The position numbers and the translations under genes are program-made. Shown piece after piece: positions 2,547 through 53,717 of a stretch of 64,000 nt of DNA. Every line of letters begins with the position of its first letter. Position 1 is the first letter of the stretch. The notes beneath the pieces were generated by a model, which was not told the DNA's origin, ran no database searches, and was given only the letters and a program-made list of their open reading frames with translations. Source of the DNA: a virus (Duplodnaviria; Caudoviricetes); the IMG/VR virus record IMGVR_UViG_3300045284_000214, positions 1,062 through 65,061 of that record; one strand, written 5' to 3'.

Positions 2547-3597
2547 AGGCTGCATTACCAACAACGGCCCCTACGTTCAGGACTTCGAGGCGCTGCTAGC
2601 CAAGTATCTCGGCGCTCCGGTGCTGTGCTTTGGCTCCGGTCAGGCTGCGCTGACGGCCATGCTGATGGCCAGTGAAATCCAGGGGCAGGAAGTGATCATC
2701 CCCTCATTCACTTTCGCCGCCACCCCAAACGCCGTACTTGCTGCTGGCGGCATCCCCGTATTTGCTGATGTCAGCATCGACACCCTGACCCTCAGTCCCA
2801 TTGATGTCGAGAAACGGATTACGGAGCAGACGGGTGCTATTCTGGCGGTCGATGCTTATGGCATTGGCGCGGATTACCAAATACTCATCAAGATTGCCAA
2901 AAAGCACCGAATTAAGCTTCTTCGCGATAGCGCACCAGCCTTCGGCACCATCTGCTCCGGACAGAACGATGTCACCGGGATTTATTCGTTTCATGCGACA
3001 AAGGCCTTTGCGGTTGGTGAGGGTGGTTGTATAGTATCGCATGACGAAAGCCTGATGGCCAGAGCCAAGTTGATCAGGAACTTCGGCCTCGACAAAAACC
3101 ATGCATGGCGGCTTCCAGGAATCAATGGCAAGATGACAGAGATCAGCGCCATTATCGGCATCCAGAGCCTAAAGGGATGGCCTGACAGGCTGAACGAGCG
3201 GCAGAAGGTCAAGGCGCGGCTGGATGCTGTCCTGACCGGTATCGATGGGCTAACGGTGATCATGACGCCTGCTGGACAGTCTGTCTCATGGTGCTACGCC
3301 CCTGCTCTCATCGACCCCATAGCGTTCGGATGCTCCCGCGACGAACTCCAGCGCCAGCTTGAGGCCAATGGCATCTATACCCGCAAGTATTACCCGGCTT
3401 GCCACATGGAGAACTTTATTTCGGACAGCGACCCGCTGGGATCAGACCTCCGGGGAATCGGGTTACCACGAACTGAGCGGTCAGCCAGTCAGGTGCTTGC
3501 CCTCCCCTGCTACGAGTCCATGACCATGACCGAATGCCAGCGCATCGGTGATACCATCCGCAATATCCAGAACATGGTCAGCACGGTATATTCATGA
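2425..3597 (+). CDS. DegT/DnrJ/EryC1/StrS PLP-dependent sugar aminotransferase
   Basis: TNNGP, PSFTF.AT, PVFADV, SFHATK (PLP lysine)..GEGG, GINGKM, VLALP. Start codon is uncertain (2425 or 2434). Confidence 0.93.
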   Translation: MFQMGSQSSAIQPVQSVIPIVRPYFPALETISSRLSRALNEGCITNNGPYVQDFEALLAKYLGAPVLCFGSGQAALTAMLMASEIQGQEVIIPSFTFAATPNAVLAAGGIPVFADVSIDTLTLSPIDVEKRITEQTGAILAVDAYGIGADYQILIKIAKKHRIKLLRDSAPAFGTICSGQNDVTGIYSFHATKAFAVGEGGCIVSHDESLMARAKLIRNFGLDKNHAWRLPGINGKMTEISAIIGIQSLKGWPDRLNERQKVKARLDAVLTGIDGLTVIMTPAGQSVSWCYAPALIDPIAFGCSRDELQRQLEANGIYTRKYYPACHMENFISDSDPLGSDLRGIGLPRTERSASQVLALPCYESMTMTECQRIGDTIRNIQNMVSTVYS

Positions 3598-33299: not shown

Positions 33300-33593
33300 A
33301 TGCCATTCGATTCCACTGTGAGGCTGGGAGACATTATCACCCTGCTGGCCTTTCTGGTGGGTGGGTTTGGTTTTGTCTGGACCATGCGAGGTGAAATACG
33401 CATGCTCGCCAAAGACGTGCAAAGGCAGGGGGACAAGATCGAAAAGCTAGAGGCAGTCATTACGCATCAGGCCGTTCAGGACCAAAGACTGATCGACTTG
33501 GAACGGCGCATAGAGGATTTGCGCCATGGCCGGGGCTTTGTGCAGCGCGACATAGACGGTCTGTGGGGCGTTGCTGGGAAGGTTAAGGATTAG
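33300..33593 (+). CDS. single-TM coiled-coil protein
   Basis: N-terminal TM followed by a heptad region. Confidence 0.6.
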   Translation: MPFDSTVRLGDIITLLAFLVGGFGFVWTMRGEIRMLAKDVQRQGDKIEKLEAVITHQAVQDQRLIDLERRIEDLRHGRGFVQRDIDGLWGVAGKVKD

Positions 33594-33595
33594 CC

Positions 33596-33982
33596 ATGAC
33601 AATGCAATATTCCACCACCATGCGGAACAACAAGCTCGATCAGGTCGAGAGCACGGTCGGCGTATCGGCGGTGCTGAAGATATTCTCCGGAGCCCAGCCA
33701 GCCAACTGTGCGGCATCCGACCCCTCTGGCCTTCTGGTCACGATGACACTGCCAAGTGACTGGATGAACGCGGCATCAGGCGGCACCAAGACCAAGCTCG
33801 GCACATGGTCAGCCACGGCATCTGGCAGCGGTACGGCGGCGTGCTGGCGCATCTATGACAGTACGGCAACTACCTGCGGCGTCCAGGGCAATACGACCGA
33901 CATGGTCTTCGATAATACCTCGATAGCCAGCGGACAGACGGTCACAGTCACGACCTTCACTCTGACGGCGGGGAATCCGTAA
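33596..33982 (+). CDS. small beta-rich virion/tail-associated protein
   Basis: 'LKIFSGAQPA...L', 'GTA..WRI.D', 'NTSIASGQTVTVTTFTLT'. Confidence 0.65.
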   Translation: MTMQYSTTMRNNKLDQVESTVGVSAVLKIFSGAQPANCAASDPSGLLVTMTLPSDWMNAASGGTKTKLGTWSATASGSGTAACWRIYDSTATTCGVQGNTTDMVFDNTSIASGQTVTVTTFTLTAGNP

Positions 33983-35729: not shown

Positions 35730-36676
35730 TGGCGTCGTTCCAGCGAACGCGCTTCACCATATTCGGCACCACGGATATCAGCGAAACCGGAGGGCGGCAG
35801 GCCTCATCCGGTGCTACCGACATCAATGAAACAATATCCATCTCTGCTTCCGCTACCATTACCGAGGCGGATGATACTGTTGCCGGTGCCGCCACCGTAT
35901 TGGTCTCTCTCACAGCCTCAATCACCGAGGGTGCCGATACAGTCTCTGGTGCTTCGACTGTTCTTGTCTCGCTCACAGCCACCATAACCGAGGCAGATGA
36001 TACTCTAGCCGGAGCAGCAACCGGCACCACTTTTGCTTCGGCAAACATCACGGAAGCTGATGATGCCGTTGCTGGTGCAGTTAGCGGAGCAATCACTGCA
36101 AGTGCCAATATCACCGAGGCCAATGATACCGTCAGTAGTGCCTCAACCGTCCAGATTACGGTCACACTCAATGTCACGGAGGAAGACGATACCCTCAGCG
36201 CCACTGCGACTGCGGCATTCGGGACCATCACAGCTAATGCCGATATCCGCGAAGAGGACGACACGCTTGAGGCCTCCACAAGGACGTTCTACTTCATTAC
36301 CCGTGGCGAGATCGTCTATGTGGACCTTGTTACCTCGACCACCACGGGTTCTGTCCCCAGCGCCTCATCCGGCTACGGCTTTTCCCTTCTCTTCAACATC
36401 GGGACAGCGTATCCTGCAGGCACTCCATTTAGCGCATCCCTGATCTCCCCAAGCGGAGAGGAAACGATTATAACCGCCAACAGCAGGCAGTTGAAGCTGG
36501 GTAGGGTTGCGGTCAAGACCGGTGGGTATCTGCCTGCGGGCAATATCATGCTACCCAACGAGTACGTCCTCTACCAGACAGCACCTGATGACTTCGACGC
36601 GCAGGGTATCTGGCAGATCGCCATGACCAGCGGGAACTACTTCTCCCGATACGGAGATGTCAGGATCGCAGCTTAG
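35726..36676 (+). CDS. TE-x-x-D repeat stalk protein with conserved C-terminal domain
   Basis: About seven '(A/S)xITEAxDTVx' repeats of ~20-22 aa; C-terminal domain shared with 36686-39340. Confidence 0.65.
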   Translation: MMASFQRTRFTIFGTTDISETGGRQASSGATDINETISISASATITEADDTVAGAATVLVSLTASITEGADTVSGASTVLVSLTATITEADDTLAGAATGTTFASANITEADDAVAGAVSGAITASANITEANDTVSSASTVQITVTLNVTEEDDTLSATATAAFGTITANADIREEDDTLEASTRTFYFITRGEIVYVDLVTSTTTGSVPSASSGYGFSLLFNIGTAYPAGTPFSASLISPSGEETIITANSRQLKLGRVAVKTGGYLPAGNIMLPNEYVLYQTAPDDFDAQGIWQIAMTSGNYFSRYGDVRIAA

Positions 36677-36685
36677 GAGCAACCA

Positions 36686-39340
36686 ATGCCAACGGTAGAC
36701 ATCGTAAGCCCCGGCGGAGCATTCAGCCCAGCCGCTGTTGGCGACGGCGTAACAGACGACGCTCCCGCTTTTCAGGCGTTCAATACCTGGGCGCAGGCCC
36801 AGGTAAGTCCGGTCACGCTTACTCTGGGAAGTGGTGCCAAGACCTTCCTGTTCGCCAGCCTAGACAGCAATGGTGAGCGCGCCAATTCCCCCGCATGGAA
36901 AGTGACGCAGCCGCTGACTGTTGTCGGCAATGGGCCGGCCACGTCGATTTTAAAAGGCGGGGTTGGTGCCGGGTTTGCGTTGGGTGCGATTGCCTCTATC
37001 AAATCCGGCAATGGACACTATGGATCGTCATCCATATTCACTGCGCGGCTTGATTCTGTAGCGGCTGGCAGCACCCATATTACCTGCAAGACTATAGCCG
37101 ACGCGGCGCTGTTTACGGTCAATACATGGGCCCTTCTCACCGGCATTGATATGCAGGCTGGCGGCTTTCCCCCAAACGCCTACTTCTATGAGTATGTGTT
37201 TATAACCGGCGTAAACACAGGCACTGGCGTGATCACATTTTCCGCCGGAGTAACCAACGAATATCTGGACTCGTGGCCTAATTTTGATCCCGGCACTCCT
37301 GGCTCCGGCGCAGATGAGGGCGGTCCTGCTACACTTTATGTGCTGGACTCGGCTTGGAATGTTGACGTTACCTATCAGTCGCTGGGCATAGACCAAAGCC
37401 TTAACACCGCTCAGACCTACGCCCCGGGCCGTAGCGTTCAGTATGTCGATGTCCAATGCTTTGACGCTTACGGCATGATCCCGACCAACAACGGGCTGAT
37501 GTCGTTCACCGACTGCGATCTTACATCCTACCAGATGGAGGTCGATAAACTAAATGACACTATAATTTTTGACAATTCCGTAACCGGACAATTGCTATTC
37601 CAGAGCACAAACAACAACCTTGTAATCAGGAATGGATCAACCGTCTCTCTCAACGGCTTGGCACGGTTCACAGAGATTACCGATTCAACTGTTACCGACA
37701 CTGAATTTGGGGCGTTGTTCTTTGGAAGAGCGGATTCATTCACTACCACCAACAGCACCTTTACAGGCAGCTTTGTTTTTGCATTTAATATCGACAGCGG
37801 CGGCATTACCGGTACCGGCATTCAAGTTGACTACACCATGTCGGCAGGCGTTATCCGCATCCCCAGAGCTGGTCTGCAATACGGCTGTCACTGGGAAATA
37901 CCGGGGACGCGCTGTTTTTTCCGAGGCCAAAATGGTGGTGGAATTAACATAGACGTTGGCCCAAGCTTTACTGTTACCTCGGTAACAAGTGACGCGACAT
38001 ATATCTATGTAACCACGGATTGGGCATATGGAGGTTTCCCGTCTTGGGCCAAGTCCATCATAGTACATCCGTGCCCAAGTGCCAGCTTTGCCTCCAACAC
38101 AACCAGCACGATCCCGGATGTTGTTAACCTTAAAGCGGCAACCGCTGCTGGTTATCCAGCGGTTGGGACCTATACAACATACACAGTCAACGGGAGTGAC
38201 TTAGGTTCTGATCCGGGTGGGCTGCCGGTGTTTCCTCCTGCGGTTTATGGGGAGCTGGTATCCTTCGTTGTCAACGTCTCGACGGCTTATACGGGCGTAC
38301 ATAATCCGCTGTTCTGGCATGCTGCTGCGGAGTTTGACAATCAACCCACGCTAGATTCCAGTCTGGTCGTTCAATCCTATGGCCCACACATCGATCTTAG
38401 AACGTCTGGCACCCGAACCATTACTCTGACGACGGCCAATCCACTAGGTTCCGACGCCAATCTTGTGCCCGGTGCGGGTACTCTTTGGTTCCCGCCATTT
38501 CAAAGCGGCGTCTGCGCCAACCAGAACATCACAGCGGAATATGCCGGTAACCCAGCCGTAGGTCCCGTTGTAAACGTGACCATCATTACAGATCAGGGGT
38601 TTTCAGATATTACAGCATCGGCCTCGATCACCGAGGCTAATGACACGGTTTCCGGTTTAGCTACAGTGGCAGTCCATGCCACGGTCTCAAAAACTGAAGC
38701 CAACGACACGGTTTCAGCAACGGTGGGCGATGTCATCAGGCTCTCAGCCAGCATCACTGAAGCTAACGACGCGGTCTCTTCTACGGTCACCCTAGCCATC
38801 CACCTTACGGCCTCGATAATCGAGGGCCGCGATACCGTAAGCTCCACCGCCATTGTGGGATCGTCAGCTGTCATCACGGCCACGGTCAATATTACCGAAG
38901 CCAGCGACAGGGTATCGGCTACCGCGCATGTGCCGGTTACTCCCGTGACCTTCCACTTCGTCACCCGGGGAGAAGTTGTCTACGTCGATGCGGTTACCCA
39001 AATCACCACCGGATCGATTCCATCGGCCTCTTCAGGCTACGGATTCTCTCTGCTTTTCAATCTGGGAATGGTGTTTCCTCCCCAGACGGAGTTCAAGGCC
39101 TCGCTGATCTCCCCCGGCGGGCTACAGAAAATCATTCTGGCCAGCAACGGACAGATCAAGCTGGGGAAGACCAGGGTCAAAACCGGTGGCTACAGACCAG
39201 TCAGTGGTGTCTGGGCCCCCTACGAATATGTCATTTACCAGACAGCCCCCGGCGACTTTAACACTCCCGGGGTGTGGAAGGTGGCCATGTCCAGCGGGGC
39301 TCCATTCTCGGGATATCAGGACGTTCGGATCGCTGCCTGA
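36686..39340 (+). CDS. tail spike / depolymerase-like protein with TE-x-x-D stalk
   Basis: AVGDGVTDDAPAFQA (pectate-lyase-3-like start), beta-helix body, five ITEAxD repeats, shared C-terminal domain. Confidence 0.7.
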   Translation: MPTVDIVSPGGAFSPAAVGDGVTDDAPAFQAFNTWAQAQVSPVTLTLGSGAKTFLFASLDSNGERANSPAWKVTQPLTVVGNGPATSILKGGVGAGFALGAIASIKSGNGHYGSSSIFTARLDSVAAGSTHITCKTIADAALFTVNTWALLTGIDMQAGGFPPNAYFYEYVFITGVNTGTGVITFSAGVTNEYLDSWPNFDPGTPGSGADEGGPATLYVLDSAWNVDVTYQSLGIDQSLNTAQTYAPGRSVQYVDVQCFDAYGMIPTNNGLMSFTDCDLTSYQMEVDKLNDTIIFDNSVTGQLLFQSTNNNLVIRNGSTVSLNGLARFTEITDSTVTDTEFGALFFGRADSFTTTNSTFTGSFVFAFNIDSGGITGTGIQVDYTMSAGVIRIPRAGLQYGCHWEIPGTRCFFRGQNGGGINIDVGPSFTVTSVTSDATYIYVTTDWAYGGFPSWAKSIIVHPCPSASFASNTTSTIPDVVNLKAATAAGYPAVGTYTTYTVNGSDLGSDPGGLPVFPPAVYGELVSFVVNVSTAYTGVHNPLFWHAAAEFDNQPTLDSSLVVQSYGPHIDLRTSGTRTITLTTANPLGSDANLVPGAGTLWFPPFQSGVCANQNITAEYAGNPAVGPVVNVTIITDQGFSDITASASITEANDTVSGLATVAVHATVSKTEANDTVSATVGDVIRLSASITEANDAVSSTVTLAIHLTASIIEGRDTVSSTAIVGSSAVITATVNITEASDRVSATAHVPVTPVTFHFVTRGEVVYVDAVTQITTGSIPSASSGYGFSLLFNLGMVFPPQTEFKASLISPGGLQKIILASNGQIKLGKTRVKTGGYRPVSGVWAPYEYVIYQTAPGDFNTPGVWKVAMSSGAPFSGYQDVRIAA

Positions 39341-46545: not shown

Positions 46546-47060
46546 GCCAGCGCCCCAGCGGCTATGAACGCAAACCGCACGACCTCTACGTCACCCCAGC
46601 GTGGGTCACCCAGGTTCTTATCCCGCACATCCCCTATCGCATCAGGACGATCTGGGAGCCTGCAGCAGGCGAAGGCAAGATGGTAAAAGTGCTGGAGGAT
46701 GCAGGATATACGGTCAGAAGCTCAGACCTCACTTCAGGGGAAGACTTCCTCGATAACAAGACACATACGCTCTCCTATAACGAGGCCATCGTCACCAATC
46801 CACCCTACAGCCTCGCCAAAGAGTTCATCGAGTGCTCACTGCAGCGAGCTGGCTTCGTGGCCATGCTGCTACGGGCTGACTATGACCACGCCAAGACGCG
46901 CCAGCATCTGTTCCTCGATACAAGGTTTGCCAAGAAGATCATTCTGACCAAGCGAATCAGATGGTTCGAGGGCACCAAGGGTGGGCCTTCCTTCAACCAT
47001 TGTTGGTTTCTCTGGGACACGGAGCACAAGGGGCCACCGGTTATTTCATATGGCCCTTGA
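46542..47060 (+). CDS. phage DNA N6-adenine methyltransferase
   Basis: DLYVTP, WEPAAGEG (motif I), DFL, VTNPPYS (motif IV). Confidence 0.85.
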   Translation: MSQRPSGYERKPHDLYVTPAWVTQVLIPHIPYRIRTIWEPAAGEGKMVKVLEDAGYTVRSSDLTSGEDFLDNKTHTLSYNEAIVTNPPYSLAKEFIECSLQRAGFVAMLLRADYDHAKTRQHLFLDTRFAKKIILTKRIRWFEGTKGGPSFNHCWFLWDTEHKGPPVISYGP

Positions 47061-47084
47061 CGGTATGTCGGCTTCGTGACACAA

Positions 47085-47570
47085 AAAGAAGCCCCGGGTC
47101 CAGAACCTTTCTGGCGCACCGGGGCGTCTATCGCTATGCTTTTTGCCGGGCTAGCGACGAGGATCAACATCTAGCGGCTTGATGTGGTTCCGTCAACCTC
47201 CCCCAGCAAAAATCTCAGCGGTCATATGGTAGTCTGGCCTCGGTAACACCCGCCCCCGGACCCTGATGTGGGAACATGACCGCATGGGACACCGAGTACG
47301 CCACGGGACCTGTGTGATTCAAATGCAGCAAGGGTTGGCCTCTGCGGTCTTAGTCCCTCCAGCGGTTCGAATGGCACATTAAACGTAAGAGATGCTGGCC
47401 TTTTGAGGACCAGCGCGGGGCGGATGTCAGTGGGTTGGCACCTAACCCCCGCCGTTGTGCAGGCGTGCTTGCAGATGAGAGGTGGACACATAACCAACCT
47501 CACAATCCCGGAAAGGGCTCTGCAAATCCACTGTGACCAAGGTCACATGCTCGTTTCGGTACGGCGCACT
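47085..47570. ncRNA. candidate structured non-coding RNA / hairpin-rich element
   Basis: No credible CDS; at least eight complementary pairs visible (see findings). Confidence 0.4.
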
Positions 47571-47729
47571 ATGCCCAAAGCAAGAGGAGGGAATCGATGG
47601 AGACAGACAGGGAAGACAGGAAGTTTCTAATCAAGAAGGACGCCTAACATGGTAATAGATGCTTGACAACGGATTTTACCTATGCTCTCTGCACCATGTT
47701 CAGTTTTAACCCTTGATAGGAACATCACT

Positions 47730-48497
47730 ATGGCAAAGAAGAATGCAGAGACGATAGTCGAACAGGTTGCGAGCGACACTCCGGTCAAGCTGGGAGCTAT
47801 CCTGTCGAAGAAGGCTCAGTTCCAACGCTTCGGCATTTGGCTGGTTGGCGATACACCGCTGATTACGCATGCGTGGTCGGAGAAGGCCCGCAGAGAGATG
47901 CTCTCCAAGCAGGTCAAGGCGACCAAGGGTGGCAAGGAAGCCCGCGATCCCCATGCTGATTTCGTTTCGTCGCTCTACGAGATGGGGGACGGCACCTATG
48001 GCTTCCCGGCGACTGGCATCAAGAACTGCATCCTGAGTGCCGCCCACAAGGACAAGGGCATCCCCAGGACGGCTGTTATGTCGGCGCTGTGGATCGACGC
48101 CGATATGGTCCGGACACGCCCAGCGCTAGCTGGAGCGGTCTGTGACATGCCTTTGGTGCGGATCACGGGCAGCAAGCCGGAAATGCGGGAGGACATGGTC
48201 AAGATCGGCTCTGGCTTGAACAAAGTTGCCAATCTGGCTTACCGGGCTCAATTCACGGTTTGGGCGATGCGAATCACTGGCCGGTTTAATTCATCGATTA
48301 TCACGCCGGAAGCGCTGGCTTTCCTGATCCAGGAAGCTGGTTTGGCTTCTGGGCTAGGGGAATGGCGGAACGAGCGCAAGGGTATGTTTGGCTCCTGCCA
48401 TTTGGCCGATCCAGAGGAAGAGGCCGCATGGGATGCCTATGAGTCTGGCAAAGGCCAGCTCCCGGTTCCCGAGAATTATCGCATGGCAGCGGAGTAA
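47730..48497 (+). CDS. stand-alone RAMP/Cas7-like protein
   Basis: ATG 47730 after AGGA. RAMP-like order of motifs: beta1 'IWLVGDTPLITH', 'YGFPATGIKNCILSAA' (cf. xPGSSLKGxLR), 'YRAQF..W.MRI', C-terminal Gly loop 'AGLASGLGEWR..RKGMFG'. Confidence 0.75.
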   Translation: MAKKNAETIVEQVASDTPVKLGAILSKKAQFQRFGIWLVGDTPLITHAWSEKARREMLSKQVKATKGGKEARDPHADFVSSLYEMGDGTYGFPATGIKNCILSAAHKDKGIPRTAVMSALWIDADMVRTRPALAGAVCDMPLVRITGSKPEMREDMVKIGSGLNKVANLAYRAQFTVWAMRITGRFNSSIITPEALAFLIQEAGLASGLGEWRNERKGMFGSCHLADPEEEAAWDAYESGKGQLPVPENYRMAAE

Positions 48498-48502
48498 TAA
48501 TC

Positions 48503-49006
48503 ATGGTCAAATACATCTTCAGGGATGGCCCACTTACCATCCCGAATGCCAAGAAAGCCAGTGCTCAGAAGATCGGAACTGCGCTGGCTCAGATTGCGGA
48601 ACAACAGAAAGGGAGGCTAACGCCTCCAGCCGTTGTTGAAGCCGCCCGCAGCAATCGGCATCCCCTGCATCAATACTTTGAATGGGACAACGATGTAGCA
48701 GCTGAAGCCTATAGGCTGGATCAGGCCCGGACACTGATTCGGTCGGTCGCAGTTGTTGATGACAACGAGGACTCCAAACCCGCCTACCTGTCGATTTCCG
48801 ACAAGGCAGGAACCAGCTATCGGGCCGTCGAGGAAGTGCTTGACAGTGCTGAATTGCAAAGCGCTGTTCTGGCTGCGGCAGAGCGCGATCTAATTGCGTT
48901 CGAGAAGCGATACCGCCAGCTTCAGGACATCTGTGAAATCATTAGCAGCGCTAGGAGCAAGATTGCTGCTCGTCGCAACAAACATGAAAGCAGACTCGCA
49001 AGTTGA
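48503..49006 (+). CDS. partner protein of the RAMP-like gene
   Basis: GGAG RBS, starting 5 nt after the RAMP-like stop; 'G.LTP..VVEAAR....PLH.YFEWDN..AAE.YRL.QAR.LIRS' motif. Confidence 0.75.
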   Translation: MVKYIFRDGPLTIPNAKKASAQKIGTALAQIAEQQKGRLTPPAVVEAARSNRHPLHQYFEWDNDVAAEAYRLDQARTLIRSVAVVDDNEDSKPAYLSISDKAGTSYRAVEEVLDSAELQSAVLAAAERDLIAFEKRYRQLQDICEIISSARSKIAARRNKHESRLAS

Positions 49007-49017
49007 GCCTGTGAGAG

Positions 49018-49689
49018 CCAGGGACAAGAGGAGCTAGTCAGAGACAGTCGATGCGCAGAGCGTTCGTGTAAGTTAAGGCAGGCTTGGAGTGGCAGTTCCG
49101 AGAGATGCAGGCCAAGGCCTGGAACGGCAAGTTAAGGCAGGCGTGGTGAAGATTGGAACTGAGGTCGGAGCAGGCAAGGAGCAGCAAGTCCTGTACAGTC
49201 ACGGACAGGCAATGCAAGGCCGGATAGGACAGGCTTGTATAATCACGGCCCGTAATGTTCGGGGGTTGTCTGGATTGGTATGGCAGGCAGGGCTGGTCCC
49301 GTAAGTGATCGGTTGTGTGCGTTATCGCGTGGCAAAGCCGCGTTGGTCAAGGCAGGAGGAGAGTGGCATGGACCGTAATGGTTGGTTTTGGCAGGGCGCG
49401 TTGCGTCCTGTAGCGGTTCTGTAAGGCAGGATGTGTGTGGAAGTGCTGAGGCGTGGAAGTTCATATCTGTGCCCATTAAGGCAGGAGCGGTGTGGATAGT
49501 CGCGGCCCGTTCGGGTCTGGCAATGCCCAGTTAGGCAAGTCAGGAATGGAGTGGCAGAGATTGTCTGAGACGGTTTCTGAACTGTAAAGAGAAGAGTGGC
49601 TTGGTGAGGCTGGCTTGGCGTTGTTGAGCGCGGTTCTTCTGGTTTCGGCCCCGTCATGTGGGAAACGGCCCGGCGCTGCTTTGCTGGCA
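49018..49689 (+). repeat. non-coding array of 5-nt units (GG-biased triplet + variable NN) segmented by a 4-nt GGCA linker; candidate guide-RNA array
   Basis: Example from 49077: ggca|ggctt ggagt ggcag ttccg agaga tgcag gccaa ggcct ggaac ggcaa gttaa|ggca. Linker spacings are mostly 5n+4. Confidence 0.85.
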
Positions 49690-49697
49690 AACAAAAA

Positions 49698-49730
49698 TAG
49701 TGGCGGGAGAAATCCCGCTGCTAACTTTTC
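49698..49730 (+). terminator. intrinsic terminator closing the array
   Basis: tagtggcggga-gaaa-tcccgctgcta stem with GNRA loop, followed by acttttc. Confidence 0.75.
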
Positions 49731-49746
49731 TGTTGGGGAGGGTTCA

Positions 49747-51207
49747 TTGAGAGAACTGAGGCAAGATCAGATCGAGTTATTGGTCGAGATAGAGGAGGCT
49801 ATCGAGTCTGGGTTGCGGCGGTTAATGATCCAGGCTCCATGCGGGTTTGGGAAAACACTGGTAGCTTCGACATTGCTCAAGAAATATTGCGATGAAGGCA
49901 AGCGGGTCATGTTTGTGGTCCCGGCTATCAGCTTAATCAGCCAGACAATTGAAGTATTCAACAGCGAGGGATTAGAAGATATTGGCGTAATGCAAGCTTA
50001 TCACATGATGACTAACTGGGACATGCCAATACAAATTTGTAGTATTCAAACACTTTCAAGAAGAAATCTTCCAAAGTCCGATATCGTTATTATAGATGAA
50101 GCTCATATTTGGTTTAAATTCTTCGAAAAATGGATGCTGGACCCTGAATGGAAAGATATTCCATTTGTTGGACTTTCGGCAACGCCATGGGCGAAAGGTT
50201 TGGGCGCTTGGTACCAAAAACTGATCATAGGCAGCACCATTGGCGAAGCTATAGACCAGGGCATTTTGTCTCGTTTCAAAGTATTCGCGCCCGCCCATCC
50301 AGATTTAACAAAGGTTAGGACTCTCGCTGGCGATTTTCATGAAGGCGACCTCGAAAAGGTAATGAACCAAAAACGCCTTGTCGCGGATATTGTTAGCACA
50401 TGGCTTTTACGAGCTAAAGACTTGCCAACACTTTGTTTTTGCGTGAACCGCGCTCACGCGAAACAGGTTCAAGAGCAATTTATTGCCGCTGGGATAAATG
50501 CTGGCTACCAAGATTCCTTTACTAGGGATGACGAGCGAACAGCCATCAAGATCAAGTTCCACAACGGCGAAATGCCTGTCGTTTGCTCGGTAAATACAAT
50601 GATTTTGGGCATCGACTGGAAAATCAAGTGTTTGATTTGGGCGTGCCCGACAAAATCCGAGATGAAGTACGTTCAGGGCACTGGTCGAGGGTTGAGAACA
50701 GATGAAGGCAAGGACGAGTGCCTTATCCTCGATCATTCGGACAACACATTGCGCCTCGGATTCGTGGATTCCATCCATCACGCAGAATTGAACACGGGAA
50801 AAAAACCTTTAGCTGCCTCGGTCAGTCCGATCCGCCTTCCCAAGGAATGCCCGCAATGTACTTTCCTGAAACCGCCCAAGACGCTGGAGTGCCCGAACTG
50901 CGGCTTTGCCACCAAGCCGGTGGTCGATGTGGTGGTCGAGAAGGGCGAACTAGTTGAGTTTACCAAGAGGGGAAAGCCAAAGGATTTGTTCGAGAAACCA
51001 GATACTTACGCCGGTCTTCTGTGGTACGGACAGCAGAAGAATTACAAGGCTGGCTGGGCATTCCATAAATATTTTGAGCTTTTTCAAGAATATCCTCAAG
51101 GACTTGGCGTGGTGCCGAAGCCACCAAGCACGGAATTGGCAAAATGGATCAAATCACGAACCATAGCTTGGGCACACTCCAAATACCGGACTCCGCTTCG
51201 CCCATAA
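49747..51207 (+). CDS. SF2 DEAH helicase (RadD/YejH-like) with zinc finger
   Basis: TTG 49747 after GGGGAGG; LR..Q, APCGFGKT, DEAH, LSATP, QGTGRGLR, CPQC..CPNC. Confidence 0.92.
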   Translation: MRELRQDQIELLVEIEEAIESGLRRLMIQAPCGFGKTLVASTLLKKYCDEGKRVMFVVPAISLISQTIEVFNSEGLEDIGVMQAYHMMTNWDMPIQICSIQTLSRRNLPKSDIVIIDEAHIWFKFFEKWMLDPEWKDIPFVGLSATPWAKGLGAWYQKLIIGSTIGEAIDQGILSRFKVFAPAHPDLTKVRTLAGDFHEGDLEKVMNQKRLVADIVSTWLLRAKDLPTLCFCVNRAHAKQVQEQFIAAGINAGYQDSFTRDDERTAIKIKFHNGEMPVVCSVNTMILGIDWKIKCLIWACPTKSEMKYVQGTGRGLRTDEGKDECLILDHSDNTLRLGFVDSIHHAELNTGKKPLAASVSPIRLPKECPQCTFLKPPKTLECPNCGFATKPVVDVVVEKGELVEFTKRGKPKDLFEKPDTYAGLLWYGQQKNYKAGWAFHKYFELFQEYPQGLGVVPKPPSTELAKWIKSRTIAWAHSKYRTPLRP

Positions 51208-52115: not shown

Positions 52116-53717
52116 ATGGGTGATGGAAGCGGCGGCGGAGATGGTGGCGGTGGCGGCTCGGACAGCAGTTCTGACAGCGCCAACGATACCGGTGGCTTTA
52201 CCGGTGTAGCTCCCGGCGATCCCAGCGCCGTAAGCGGCTTCAGTGTAGGCACAGGCTTTGGCGATAGCTCGCAGTCAGGATCTTCACTGAGCGGCGAAGG
52301 GTTCGGCCCGGATGCGGATGCTGCTGCCGCAGCCGCTGCGGTTACTGGTCTTGCCACCGGTCTTGGTAGCGTGAGCGATGCCAATATCGGGACAGGCATC
52401 GGGAGTCTTGGGTTTGGAACCTCCAGCCCAAGCACTCCAGCCCCCGGTGAAGGCGCTGGCTTTGGCGCACCCGGCAATCCGGGCATTGGGGCGCAGACAG
52501 ATGCAGGCTTCGGTATAGCTGGCATTGGCCCGACTGCTGCTGGGCAGGGCTTGGGCCCGGCTGACAGCACCACTAACGATACTGCCAACCTCGGGCAGTC
52601 CATTGGCGCGGCGCTTAGTCAAAACAGCGACCCCAGCACTTCGGTTAGTCCATCCCTTGCGGCTGCTCTTGCTTCATTAGGCCAGACGAGTGCACCTGCG
52701 GCAGCGGCTGCGCCCGGCGCCGCACCGCCAGGAATAGCGGGAATCACCGGCGTAGCCAGCCCTGATCCTACATCACAAGCTGCACAGCCGGATGCTGTTA
52801 GCGCGGTCACGGGAGTTGCGCCTCCGGGCCTGAGCAACAGTACGCCATCCTCTCCGTTTGGCACGATTGCAGCGCCACCTACCAGCATGGACGCAGAGCT
52901 TGGCATAGATGTCCCCGGCATCGATCAGGACATGGCGGTCAATGCGCCACCCCCTCCGGGCGTAACAATGGGCTTCCAAGGTTTCAGCCCCAGCCCTACC
53001 GGCGTAGTGGGAGTAACCTCGCCAACGTCGATTTCGGACCAAGCTTTGGCTAATACCGTCGCGACCAAAGGCGATGCTGAGGCGATGCAGGATGCAAAGG
53101 ATCAAGCTGAGGCTAACGCCATAGCTGGGAAACTAGGCTTGCTAGGCCCCAACGCAATCACCACTAACCAAGGCCCGGTATCGGCGCTTCCTGCTTCGGT
53201 TTCGTCACCGCCGTCCGCGCCCAGCGCTACACTGGGAATTGGGGCTGACGCCGGATTCGGAGCACCGGGACAGCCGTCCATTGGCACCAGTCCGCCAAGC
53301 CCAGCTGCCATTGCCGCTGGATATGGTGCATTAGCTGAGGGGATGTCCACTCCCGCCGCAACTCCGGCAACCTTGGGCATCGCGTCAGACGCCATAGGAG
53401 CACCCAACCAGCCAAGCCTAGCCGCACAACAGAGCATCAACGACGCTAATATTTCCCTTGCTGCGCAAAACAATCAGCCAAACATTGCTCCAGCCCCAGC
53501 GCTCTCGCAGATCGCAACTGCGCCCCCTGCGCCAGCCGTTACCTCACCTGCGCCTGCATTAGGTGTGCCTGCCGCTACCCCCGCCTTATCGCCTGTCGCA
53601 GCTCCTGTCGCAGAGCAATCCATTACCAATCCTGATGGTACGCTGAACTTTGCGGCTCTGATGGCGAACTATCCCGGACTGCGTCAGCAGCTTACCAACA
53701 TACTCCAAACATCATGA
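52116..53717 (+). CDS. low-complexity Gly/Ser/Ala/Pro-rich protein
   Basis: AGGAG RBS; 533 aa open frame, essentially disordered. Confidence 0.7.
   Translation: MGDGSGGGDGGGGGSDSSSDSANDTGGFTGVAPGDPSAVSGFSVGTGFGDSSQSGSSLSGEGFGPDADAAAAAAAVTGLATGLGSVSDANIGTGIGSLGFGTSSPSTPAPGEGAGFGAPGNPGIGAQTDAGFGIAGIGPTAAGQGLGPADSTTNDTANLGQSIGAALSQNSDPSTSVSPSLAAALASLGQTSAPAAAAAPGAAPPGIAGITGVASPDPTSQAAQPDAVSAVTGVAPPGLSNSTPSSPFGTIAAPPTSMDAELGIDVPGIDQDMAVNAPPPPGVTMGFQGFSPSPTGVVGVTSPTSISDQALANTVATKGDAEAMQDAKDQAEANAIAGKLGLLGPNAITTNQGPVSALPASVSSPPSAPSATLGIGADAGFGAPGQPSIGTSPPSPAAIAAGYGALAEGMSTPAATPATLGIASDAIGAPNQPSLAAQQSINDANISLAAQNNQPNIAPAPALSQIATAPPAPAVTSPAPALGVPAATPALSPVAAPVAEQSITNPDGTLNFAALMANYPGLRQQLTNILQTS

Follow-up and report, generated by a model that had tools for sequence, protein, structure and literature searches.

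VIPR systems are CRISPR-related, RNA-guided DNA silencers described in three bioRxiv preprints of April to October 2026 (10.64898/2026.04.26.720920, 10.64898/2026.04.26.720927, and 10.64898/2026.10.15.759431). These preprints describe a mechanism in which one Vipr protomer is bound per 5-nucleotide (nt) unit of a guide RNA (vrRNA), with GGY (Y, pyrimidine) held by the protein, the other two bases (NN) presented, and silencing exerted without a nuclease. In the type II system of Escherichia phage phiSUSP1 (PDB 36pp; KT454805), one vrRNA lies upstream of vipr, and the arrays were demonstrated to be RNAs (10.64898/2026.04.26.720920). In staggered arrays, neighboring vrRNAs overlap by one base (Fig. 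S18 legend, 10.64898/2026.04.26.720920). Here we analyze a locus at positions 47730-49733 of a 64,000-nt stretch of DNA (hereafter the window) from a 65-kb soil phage. The window comprises bases 1062-65061 of the 65,061-bp virus record IMGVR_UViG_3300045284_000214, which has direct terminal repeats and is rated a 100% complete phage genome. We are highly confident that the locus is a phage-borne VIPR system, made up of vipr and a vap-like accessory gene followed by a vrRNA array of the staggered type and then a terminator.

All testable defining features of VIPR and of its staggered-array form are found in this locus, which belongs to a system already described and is not a new class; its only unusual trait is a degenerate scaffold. 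As in staggered-array VIPR systems, the locus is phage-borne, lacks cas genes, and combines vipr and an accessory gene with a long run of pentamers in which abutting guides overlap by one base, the overlap here being a 4-nt GGC-A-GGC junction at a spacing of 5n+4. The difference lies in the scaffold, which is far more degenerate in the window, with GG in 42% of units. With the type II system of phiSUSP1 the locus shares a homologous Vipr, the GGY-contact residues, the order vipr-vap-array, and possibly an upstream vrRNA. However, the two Vipr proteins have 24% identity over aligned columns, the window protein being ~50 amino acids (aa) longer, and the sequence of the accessory protein shows no relation to that of vap1, the accessory gene of type II (the SUSP1 clade). 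Furthermore, the vrRNAs of phiSUSP1 are separate, have 14-16 units, and each bear a 3' tail and a pseudoknot, whereas the units in the window abut and have no recognizable 3' tail, although no dedicated tail search was run. The Csm3/Cas7 backbone subunits of type III CRISPR-Cas effector complexes have no detectable sequence similarity to the window protein, and the locus has no CRISPR array, Cas10, Cas5, or Cas6. VIPR also differs in stepping 5 nt and reading two bases, and the target of published VIPR is double-stranded DNA, not RNA.

A first-pass annotation of the window had proposed a non-CRISPR RNA-guided system built around a RAMP protein, and had pointed to VIPR, which is a real and published system. 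The proposal is supported by the sequence homology of the first protein to the solved SUSP1 Vipr, and by the placement of the partner gene and array as in published loci.

Vipr, its partner protein, and the locus layout

As first annotated, vipr and its partner gene lie on the same strand, 5 nt apart (Table 1). The vipr start at 47730 was preferred over an upstream ATG at 47682 because homologues are 255-257 aa in length and cover 100% of the query. Three RAMP-like motifs that had been pointed out in this protein (LVGDTPLITH, FPATGIKNCI, and GLGEWR..KGMFG) are all present. Pfam, NCBIfam, and PADLOC were blank for both proteins. In PHROGs, Vipr matches phrog_4652, a family of unknown function, and its homologues make up 2,494 clusters at 50% identity (E <= 0.001); the members of the published Vipr family were gathered by PSI-BLAST from a Vipr seed (10.64898/2026.04.26.720920). 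A single-sequence search against all PDB chains yielded 36pp_D, "SUSP1 Vipr protein", as the sole match (E 0.001), and a 69-sequence profile matched nearly the whole of this chain (E 2.6e-14). Alignment by hhalign to phiSUSP1 ALH47069.1 had a probability of 98.4%. Judged by sequence, the 255-aa protein is a homologue of the solved SUSP1 Vipr. Comparison with known folds, which had been suggested as a check on the RAMP assignment, placed Csm3/Cas7 chains as the closest structural matches; no sequence similarity to any Cas7 chain was detected in the PDB.

In SUSP1 Vipr, GGY binding (G1, G2, and Y3) and contacts to the DNA backbone involve H17, R138, D177, W178, R179, K33, and R39 (10.64898/2026.04.26.720927). 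These align with H47, R172, E211, W212, R213, K63, and K69, respectively, of the window protein, with D177 replaced by E211. R172 and R213 do not vary within the 69-sequence alignment, and the conservation of H47 is 90% or higher. From this alignment we infer that H47, R172, E211, W212, and R213 contact GGY. No clear rule related the sequence of the G-loop to the stringency of GG across loci.

The partner protein matches phrog_15946 (6.2e-27), and in 46 of the 48 viral loci a homologue of it occurs directly 3' of vipr. In an AlphaFold2 model (predicted local distance difference test score 94.2), the N-terminal part folds into a small domain containing both helices and strands, and residues 116-166 form a single helix of ~50 residues. 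A profile search of the PDB returned nothing meaningful for this protein, and a wide VIA-align search was swamped by single-helix matches to residues 111-167, making it uninformative for the N-terminal domain. Matches in the ESM Atlas were to unnamed clusters, mostly viral.

Downstream of the partner gene are ~690 nt without a plausible gene, and then a hairpin and T-run that agree with the strong terminator called at first pass. Hairpins likewise directly trail the arrays of two related loci (L014 and L016, seen by eye). The absence of cas genes and of a CRISPR repeat array from the window also held up: neither protein matched a PADLOC Cas model, and Tandem Repeats Finder reported three small repeats in the window, none near the locus. 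The locus is therefore minimal in the published sense, consisting of vipr and one accessory gene in a mostly viral setting, and the combination of repeat-spacer array and cas gene set that defines CRISPR-Cas is absent from the window. No Rfam family was found in 46900-49900 (E <= 1), and thus the array is not interspersed with hammerheads.

Table 1. Features of the VIPR locus (window coordinates) and of the candidate target (coordinates on metagenome contig L056)
Feature	Coordinates	Strand	Description
Candidate solo vrRNA	47386..47440	+	~9-10 pentamers, 6 with GG; weak
vipr	47730..48497	+	ATG to TAA, 255 aa; minimal RAMP/Cas7-like RNA-binding subunit
vap-like accessory gene	48503..49006	+	ATG to TGA, 167 aa
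vrRNA array	49020..49687	+	136 units (125 of 5 nt, 10 of 4 nt, 1 of 3 nt), degenerate NNGGY
Junction motif GGC[A/T]GG[A/C/T]	49077..49614	+	4-nt unit, phase shift -1
Guide unit with sole candidate target	49358..49427	+	14 pentamers, GG in 8
Intrinsic terminator	49698..49733	+	11-pair hairpin (6 G-C), loop of 4, at 49698-49723; then T-rich tail
Candidate target gene	L056:248-781	-	177 aa; TubC_N-like start, CxxC...H..CW Cys-rich center

Pentamer array

The 5-nt periodicity attributed to the noncoding DNA at first pass was evident by several measures. We scored 12,790 windows of 50 nt on the + strand and called a window phased if five or more GG shared the same 5-nt phase. Only 49 were phased, 28 of them within 49076-49491, as compared to 2.0 +/- 2.8 in dinucleotide-preserving shuffles of 49007-49700, none of which reached 28 (0/1000). 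GG-GG distances divisible by 5 numbered 110, versus 55.5 +/- 6.8 in shuffles (maximum 78). The histogram of these distances peaks at 5 and 10, and then at 14/15, 19/20, 24/25, and 29/30, a pattern of period 5 with occasional one-base slips. Parsing by an NNGGY hidden Markov model identified a single domain in the entire window, at 49020-49687. As a positive control, the same model applied to phiSUSP1 recovered exactly the published vrRNA layout: four domains, each of 14-16 units, with one preceding vipr and the other three following vap1. Published VIPR loci carry tandem YNNGG-type repeats of at least four units beside vipr, and the window array has 136 units. Measures that require a fixed phase fared less well. 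Period-5 Fourier power over all 694 nt was not significant (0.37 versus 0.74 +/- 0.47 in shuffles) because each junction slips the phase by one base, while 300-nt Fourier windows at 49001 and 49301 ranked first and third of 637. Tandem Repeats Finder missed the array on account of the same one-base slips, finding only an 11-nt, 2-copy repeat in 48900-49800.

The array is rich in G (38%, versus 19% C). Among its 125 pentamers, G has a frequency of 0.67 at position 3 and 0.70 at position 4, and C of 0.46 at position 5. Positions 1 and 2 are unbiased. Conversely, the frequency falls to 0.02 for C at both position 3 and position 4, and for G at position 5. At least one G occurs at positions 3/4 in 119 of 125 units, a count partly favored by the parser, to which only ~10 slips were open.

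Ten 4-nt units shift the phase, and eight of these carry the junction motif (starts at 49077, 49136, 49282, 49291, 49351, 49425, 49480, and 49608), which provides the one-base overlap of neighbors characteristic of staggered arrays. The motif has eight copies on the + strand of the array, none on the - strand, and 75 elsewhere on the + strand of the window. It is the only direct repeat in the array, which the junctions divide into ~10 guide-sized units of 54-74 nt.

Some further details were noted within the array. A unit containing CCGT occurs at 49249, 49299, 49372, 49505, and 49651 (CCGTA three times, and CCGTT and CCCGT once each), 14-40 nt after five of the junctions, and is in many cases followed within a few bases by a short stretch complementary to it. 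GGCCCGT-like strings are also seen in the arrays of two related loci (L002 and L050). The CCGT unit may be a subclade-specific motif or a small hairpin within guides. In addition, a perfect TATAAT is visible by eye at 49238-49243 (unit 49225-49284). It has no good -35 element and was not called by a promoter scan; possibly it serves as a start for distal guides.

The 669 nt upstream of vipr (47061-47729) have no genes and contain the candidate solo vrRNA; a promoter or a site for a regulator may lie there as well. Six of the 49 phased windows fall in 47386-47416, a count reached by 20 of 1000 shuffles of the gap, and the NNGGY model did not call this element. Five relatives (L016, L017, L018, L020, and L021) have a domain of 10-15 units just upstream of vipr.

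Related loci

We compared the locus with 51 related loci, 48 from IMG/VR and three from genomes, one of these being a Tianweitania sp. contig with 73% identity. Periodicity downstream of homologues had been put forward at first pass as a check, and an array was called beside the gene pair in 49 of the 51. The two loci without a called array are L023, which matches the C-terminal part of vipr alone, and L052, which ends inside the vipr match. No nucleotide similarity was detectable between the window array and those of relatives, even though the proteins reach 82% identity. The junction recurs in relatives every 49-79 nt, mostly 54, 59, or 64, i.e., 5n+4. Scaffold quality varies widely. At 33-36% protein identity, relatives of the L027, L036, and L037 type have GG in 96-99% of units, and at 65-82% protein identity the fraction ranges from 0.34 to 1.0. 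At least nine loci (L002, L003, L005, L006, L007, L009, L011, L015, and L050) have fractions of 0.34-0.58.

Eight IMG/VR loci (L034, L036-L041, and L045), whose vipr genes are each 34-36% identical to the query, a value that does not describe their identity to one another, have 46 distinct guide units, 23 of which are shared. The units at either end of these arrays are for the most part retained and those in the interior swapped. This guide turnover is cassette-like and reminiscent of CRISPR arrays.

Vipr homologues were found in 33 of 50,697 phage records, 27 from Mycobacterium phages, five from Gordonia phages, and one from a cyanophage. Mycobacterium phage Saal (NC_023580.1) has a near-perfect staggered array of 50 units with four GGC-AGG junctions (L057:2096-2342, ~36586-36832), located just upstream of the Vipr homologue gp51; gp52 is the likely partner gene. 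Gordonia phage UmaThurman (NC_031249.1) has a clean staggered NNGGY array of 64 units (L058:3073-3386, ~33352-33665) directly after the Vipr homologue gp39, with no vap-like gene in between. This array nearly coincides with gp40, annotated as a "hypothetical protein" (locus 3083-3406), which is probably a mis-called vrRNA array.

The unit is flanked upstream by genes for a helix-turn-helix regulator, a RusA resolvase, and a DNA methyltransferase, and downstream by genes for a helicase (phrog_16, 2e-71) and a primase (phrog_510). Neither the helicase nor the primase was found in any of the 51 loci, which indicates that the cassette is a self-contained module that moves on its own and that the helicase is not part of it. 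Following the primase, at 52116-53717, is an open reading frame of 533 aa with very low complexity (Gly/Ala/Ser/Pro-rich) and no PHROG match.

Target search, alternatives, and proposed mechanism

For the target search, guides were read as the first two bases per unit with one base skipped between (NN-x-NN-x). A scan of the window and the 51 loci (874,600 positions, skips 0-2) yielded no self-target, no target in the related loci, and nothing above shuffled-order controls. The unit starting at 49358 (guide 49358) gave the sole candidate. Its 11-NN pattern has one exact match in metagenome contigs (L056:300-331, 22/22 core bases), for which ~0.05 chance matches are estimated, assuming roughly 5e11 bases in the collection. 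Across the full guide the agreement is 24 of 28 NN bases, a level reached on that contig by none of 200 shuffled-order controls. Each of the 10 skipped bases coincides with the third position of a codon in a 177-aa gene on the opposite strand; the preprints report this placement for true VIPR targets. The gene is considered real because the encoded protein has 38 homologues, 40-50% identical and from alphaproteobacterial assemblies where named. The TubC_N-like start of the protein scores 21.4 bits, under the Pfam cut-off of 26. Guide 49358 spells an 11-residue stretch near the C-terminus of the target. This stretch is partly conserved in the family, but homologues differ at several guide-coded residues, such that the match is specific to one variant. 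No relatives of the target protein were found in viral contigs, and no other guide matched the L056 contig. The full 14-NN guide, allowing <= 3 mismatches, had no match in the Tianweitania genome. Preceding the target gene is an open-ended reading frame (L056:763-1170, - strand) with a faint excisionase-like PHROG match (E 0.086).

A number of observations weigh against the reading as a VIPR system. The first-pass annotation took a GG-triplet to be the constant part of each unit and described the array as more degenerate than strict GGY. The constant part is GGY, with its Y often lost here; GG survives in only 52 of the 125 pentamers, and the full GGY in 38. In SUSP1, perturbation of the GGY motif abolished silencing (10.64898/2026.04.26.720920). 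Six exact gapped patterns, from five other guides and the core of guide 49358, each had no match in viral contigs, and guide 49358 at <= 3 mismatches had none in 301 genomes of the order to which the host of the Tianweitania prophage belongs. The L056 match does not extend outward, as three flanking NN agree at 2 of 6 bases, which is the chance level. The site is a candidate target that has about an even chance of being coincidental. As for the partner, its profile showed no similarity to SUSP1 vap1 (ALH47068.1; hhalign probability 0.1%). Its Foldseek matches were weak (all E > 0.2) and mostly to winged-helix DNA binders. These agree with a figure legend that mentions "WH-like" accessory proteins (10.64898/2026.04.26.720920), and weakly suggest a DNA-binding fold without being proof of one. 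Lastly, a promoter scan found no sigma-70 promoter on the + strand of 46900-49900.

Several of these points would also be expected if the genes were intact and the array were a decaying relic, its GG scaffold lost by drift such that Vipr no longer loads and the locus is inactive or nearly so. The low GG fraction as compared to relatives with near-perfect scaffolds, the sensitivity of SUSP1 silencing to GGY perturbation, and the lack of exact viral-contig targets all fit this explanation. However, phase has been kept across 668 nt, with ~10 slips located mostly at junction motifs, and the retention of a G at positions 3/4, along with the near exclusion of C there and of G from position 5, runs counter to decay, even if partly favored by the parser. 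The comparable degeneracy of at least nine related loci, whose arrays have no sequence in common with the window array, argues for a maintained style instead of one-off decay, and the discovery preprint itself reports frequent internal degeneracy, with NNNGG, YNNNG, and NNNNG forms (10.64898/2026.04.26.720920). We therefore consider a relic improbable.

The array lies directly upstream of the helicase and primase genes and has a strong G/C strand asymmetry, as might be expected of G-rich periodic DNA that acts as DNA (an origin, iterons, or a G-quadruplex tract) for these enzymes and that neighbors a RAMP gene by chance. Such a role is very improbable, in that the array trails vipr-vap in 49 of 51 loci, none of which was found to have the helicase or primase, the terminator stands between the array and the helicase gene, and the arrays of phiSUSP1, which share this grammar, have been demonstrated to be RNAs. 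The structural resemblance to Csm3/Cas7 chains could similarly be taken as the trace of a minimal or degenerate CRISPR-Cas system of type III/IV-like ancestry, but the window has no repeat-spacer array, neither protein matches a PADLOC Cas model, and the sequence similarity is to Vipr and not to any PDB Cas7 chain. The locus is almost certainly not such a remnant.

For the preferred reading of a VIPR system, the stepwise mechanism of one subunit per 5 nt proposed at first pass is the published one, and we would extend it to this locus as follows. Judging from their spacing, vipr, the partner gene, and the array would be co-transcribed, with the terminator closing the unit. Cleavage of the array at or close to the GGC-A-GGC junctions would release guides of ~55-75 nt, and Vipr would polymerize along each guide with one protomer per pentamer, as demonstrated for SUSP1. 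The GG(Y) scaffold would be held by H47, R172, E211, W212, and R213; in this array the scaffold is relaxed, with a single G left of the two in most units. By analogy with the published SUSP1 and P. fulva systems, the two variable bases per pentamer would be free to pair with double-stranded DNA read as NN-x-NN-x, and, as demonstrated for SUSP1, the bound filament would block transcription of a rival mobile element, there being no nuclease. A probable role of the partner protein, which has a long helix at its C-terminus and an N-terminal domain that may be winged-helix-like, is to help at the DNA. A more specific version is that the code is relaxed in this subclade, with one G per pentamer sufficing to keep register, the array fully functional, and guide 49358 (49358-49427) silencing the TubC_N-like Cys-rich gene on a soil-alphaproteobacterial mobile element. 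This version is tentative, and we hold it to be somewhat unlikely.

With this locus, a system class less than one year old gains a complete VIPR cassette with well-defined limits, carried by a 65-kb soil phage. Two PHROG families that had no known function can also be named, phrog_4652 as Vipr-like and phrog_15946 as the accessory protein. Close relatives of the locus span near-perfect to very degenerate GG scaffolds, and the cultured phages Saal and UmaThurman, with their clean staggered arrays, offer a laboratory route to test the architecture. If the relaxed-code reading is true, the guide rules of VIPR would be wider than the strict GGY shown for SUSP1. Should degenerate arrays work, the looser rules for building guides would bear on guide design and on the detection of arrays in genomes.

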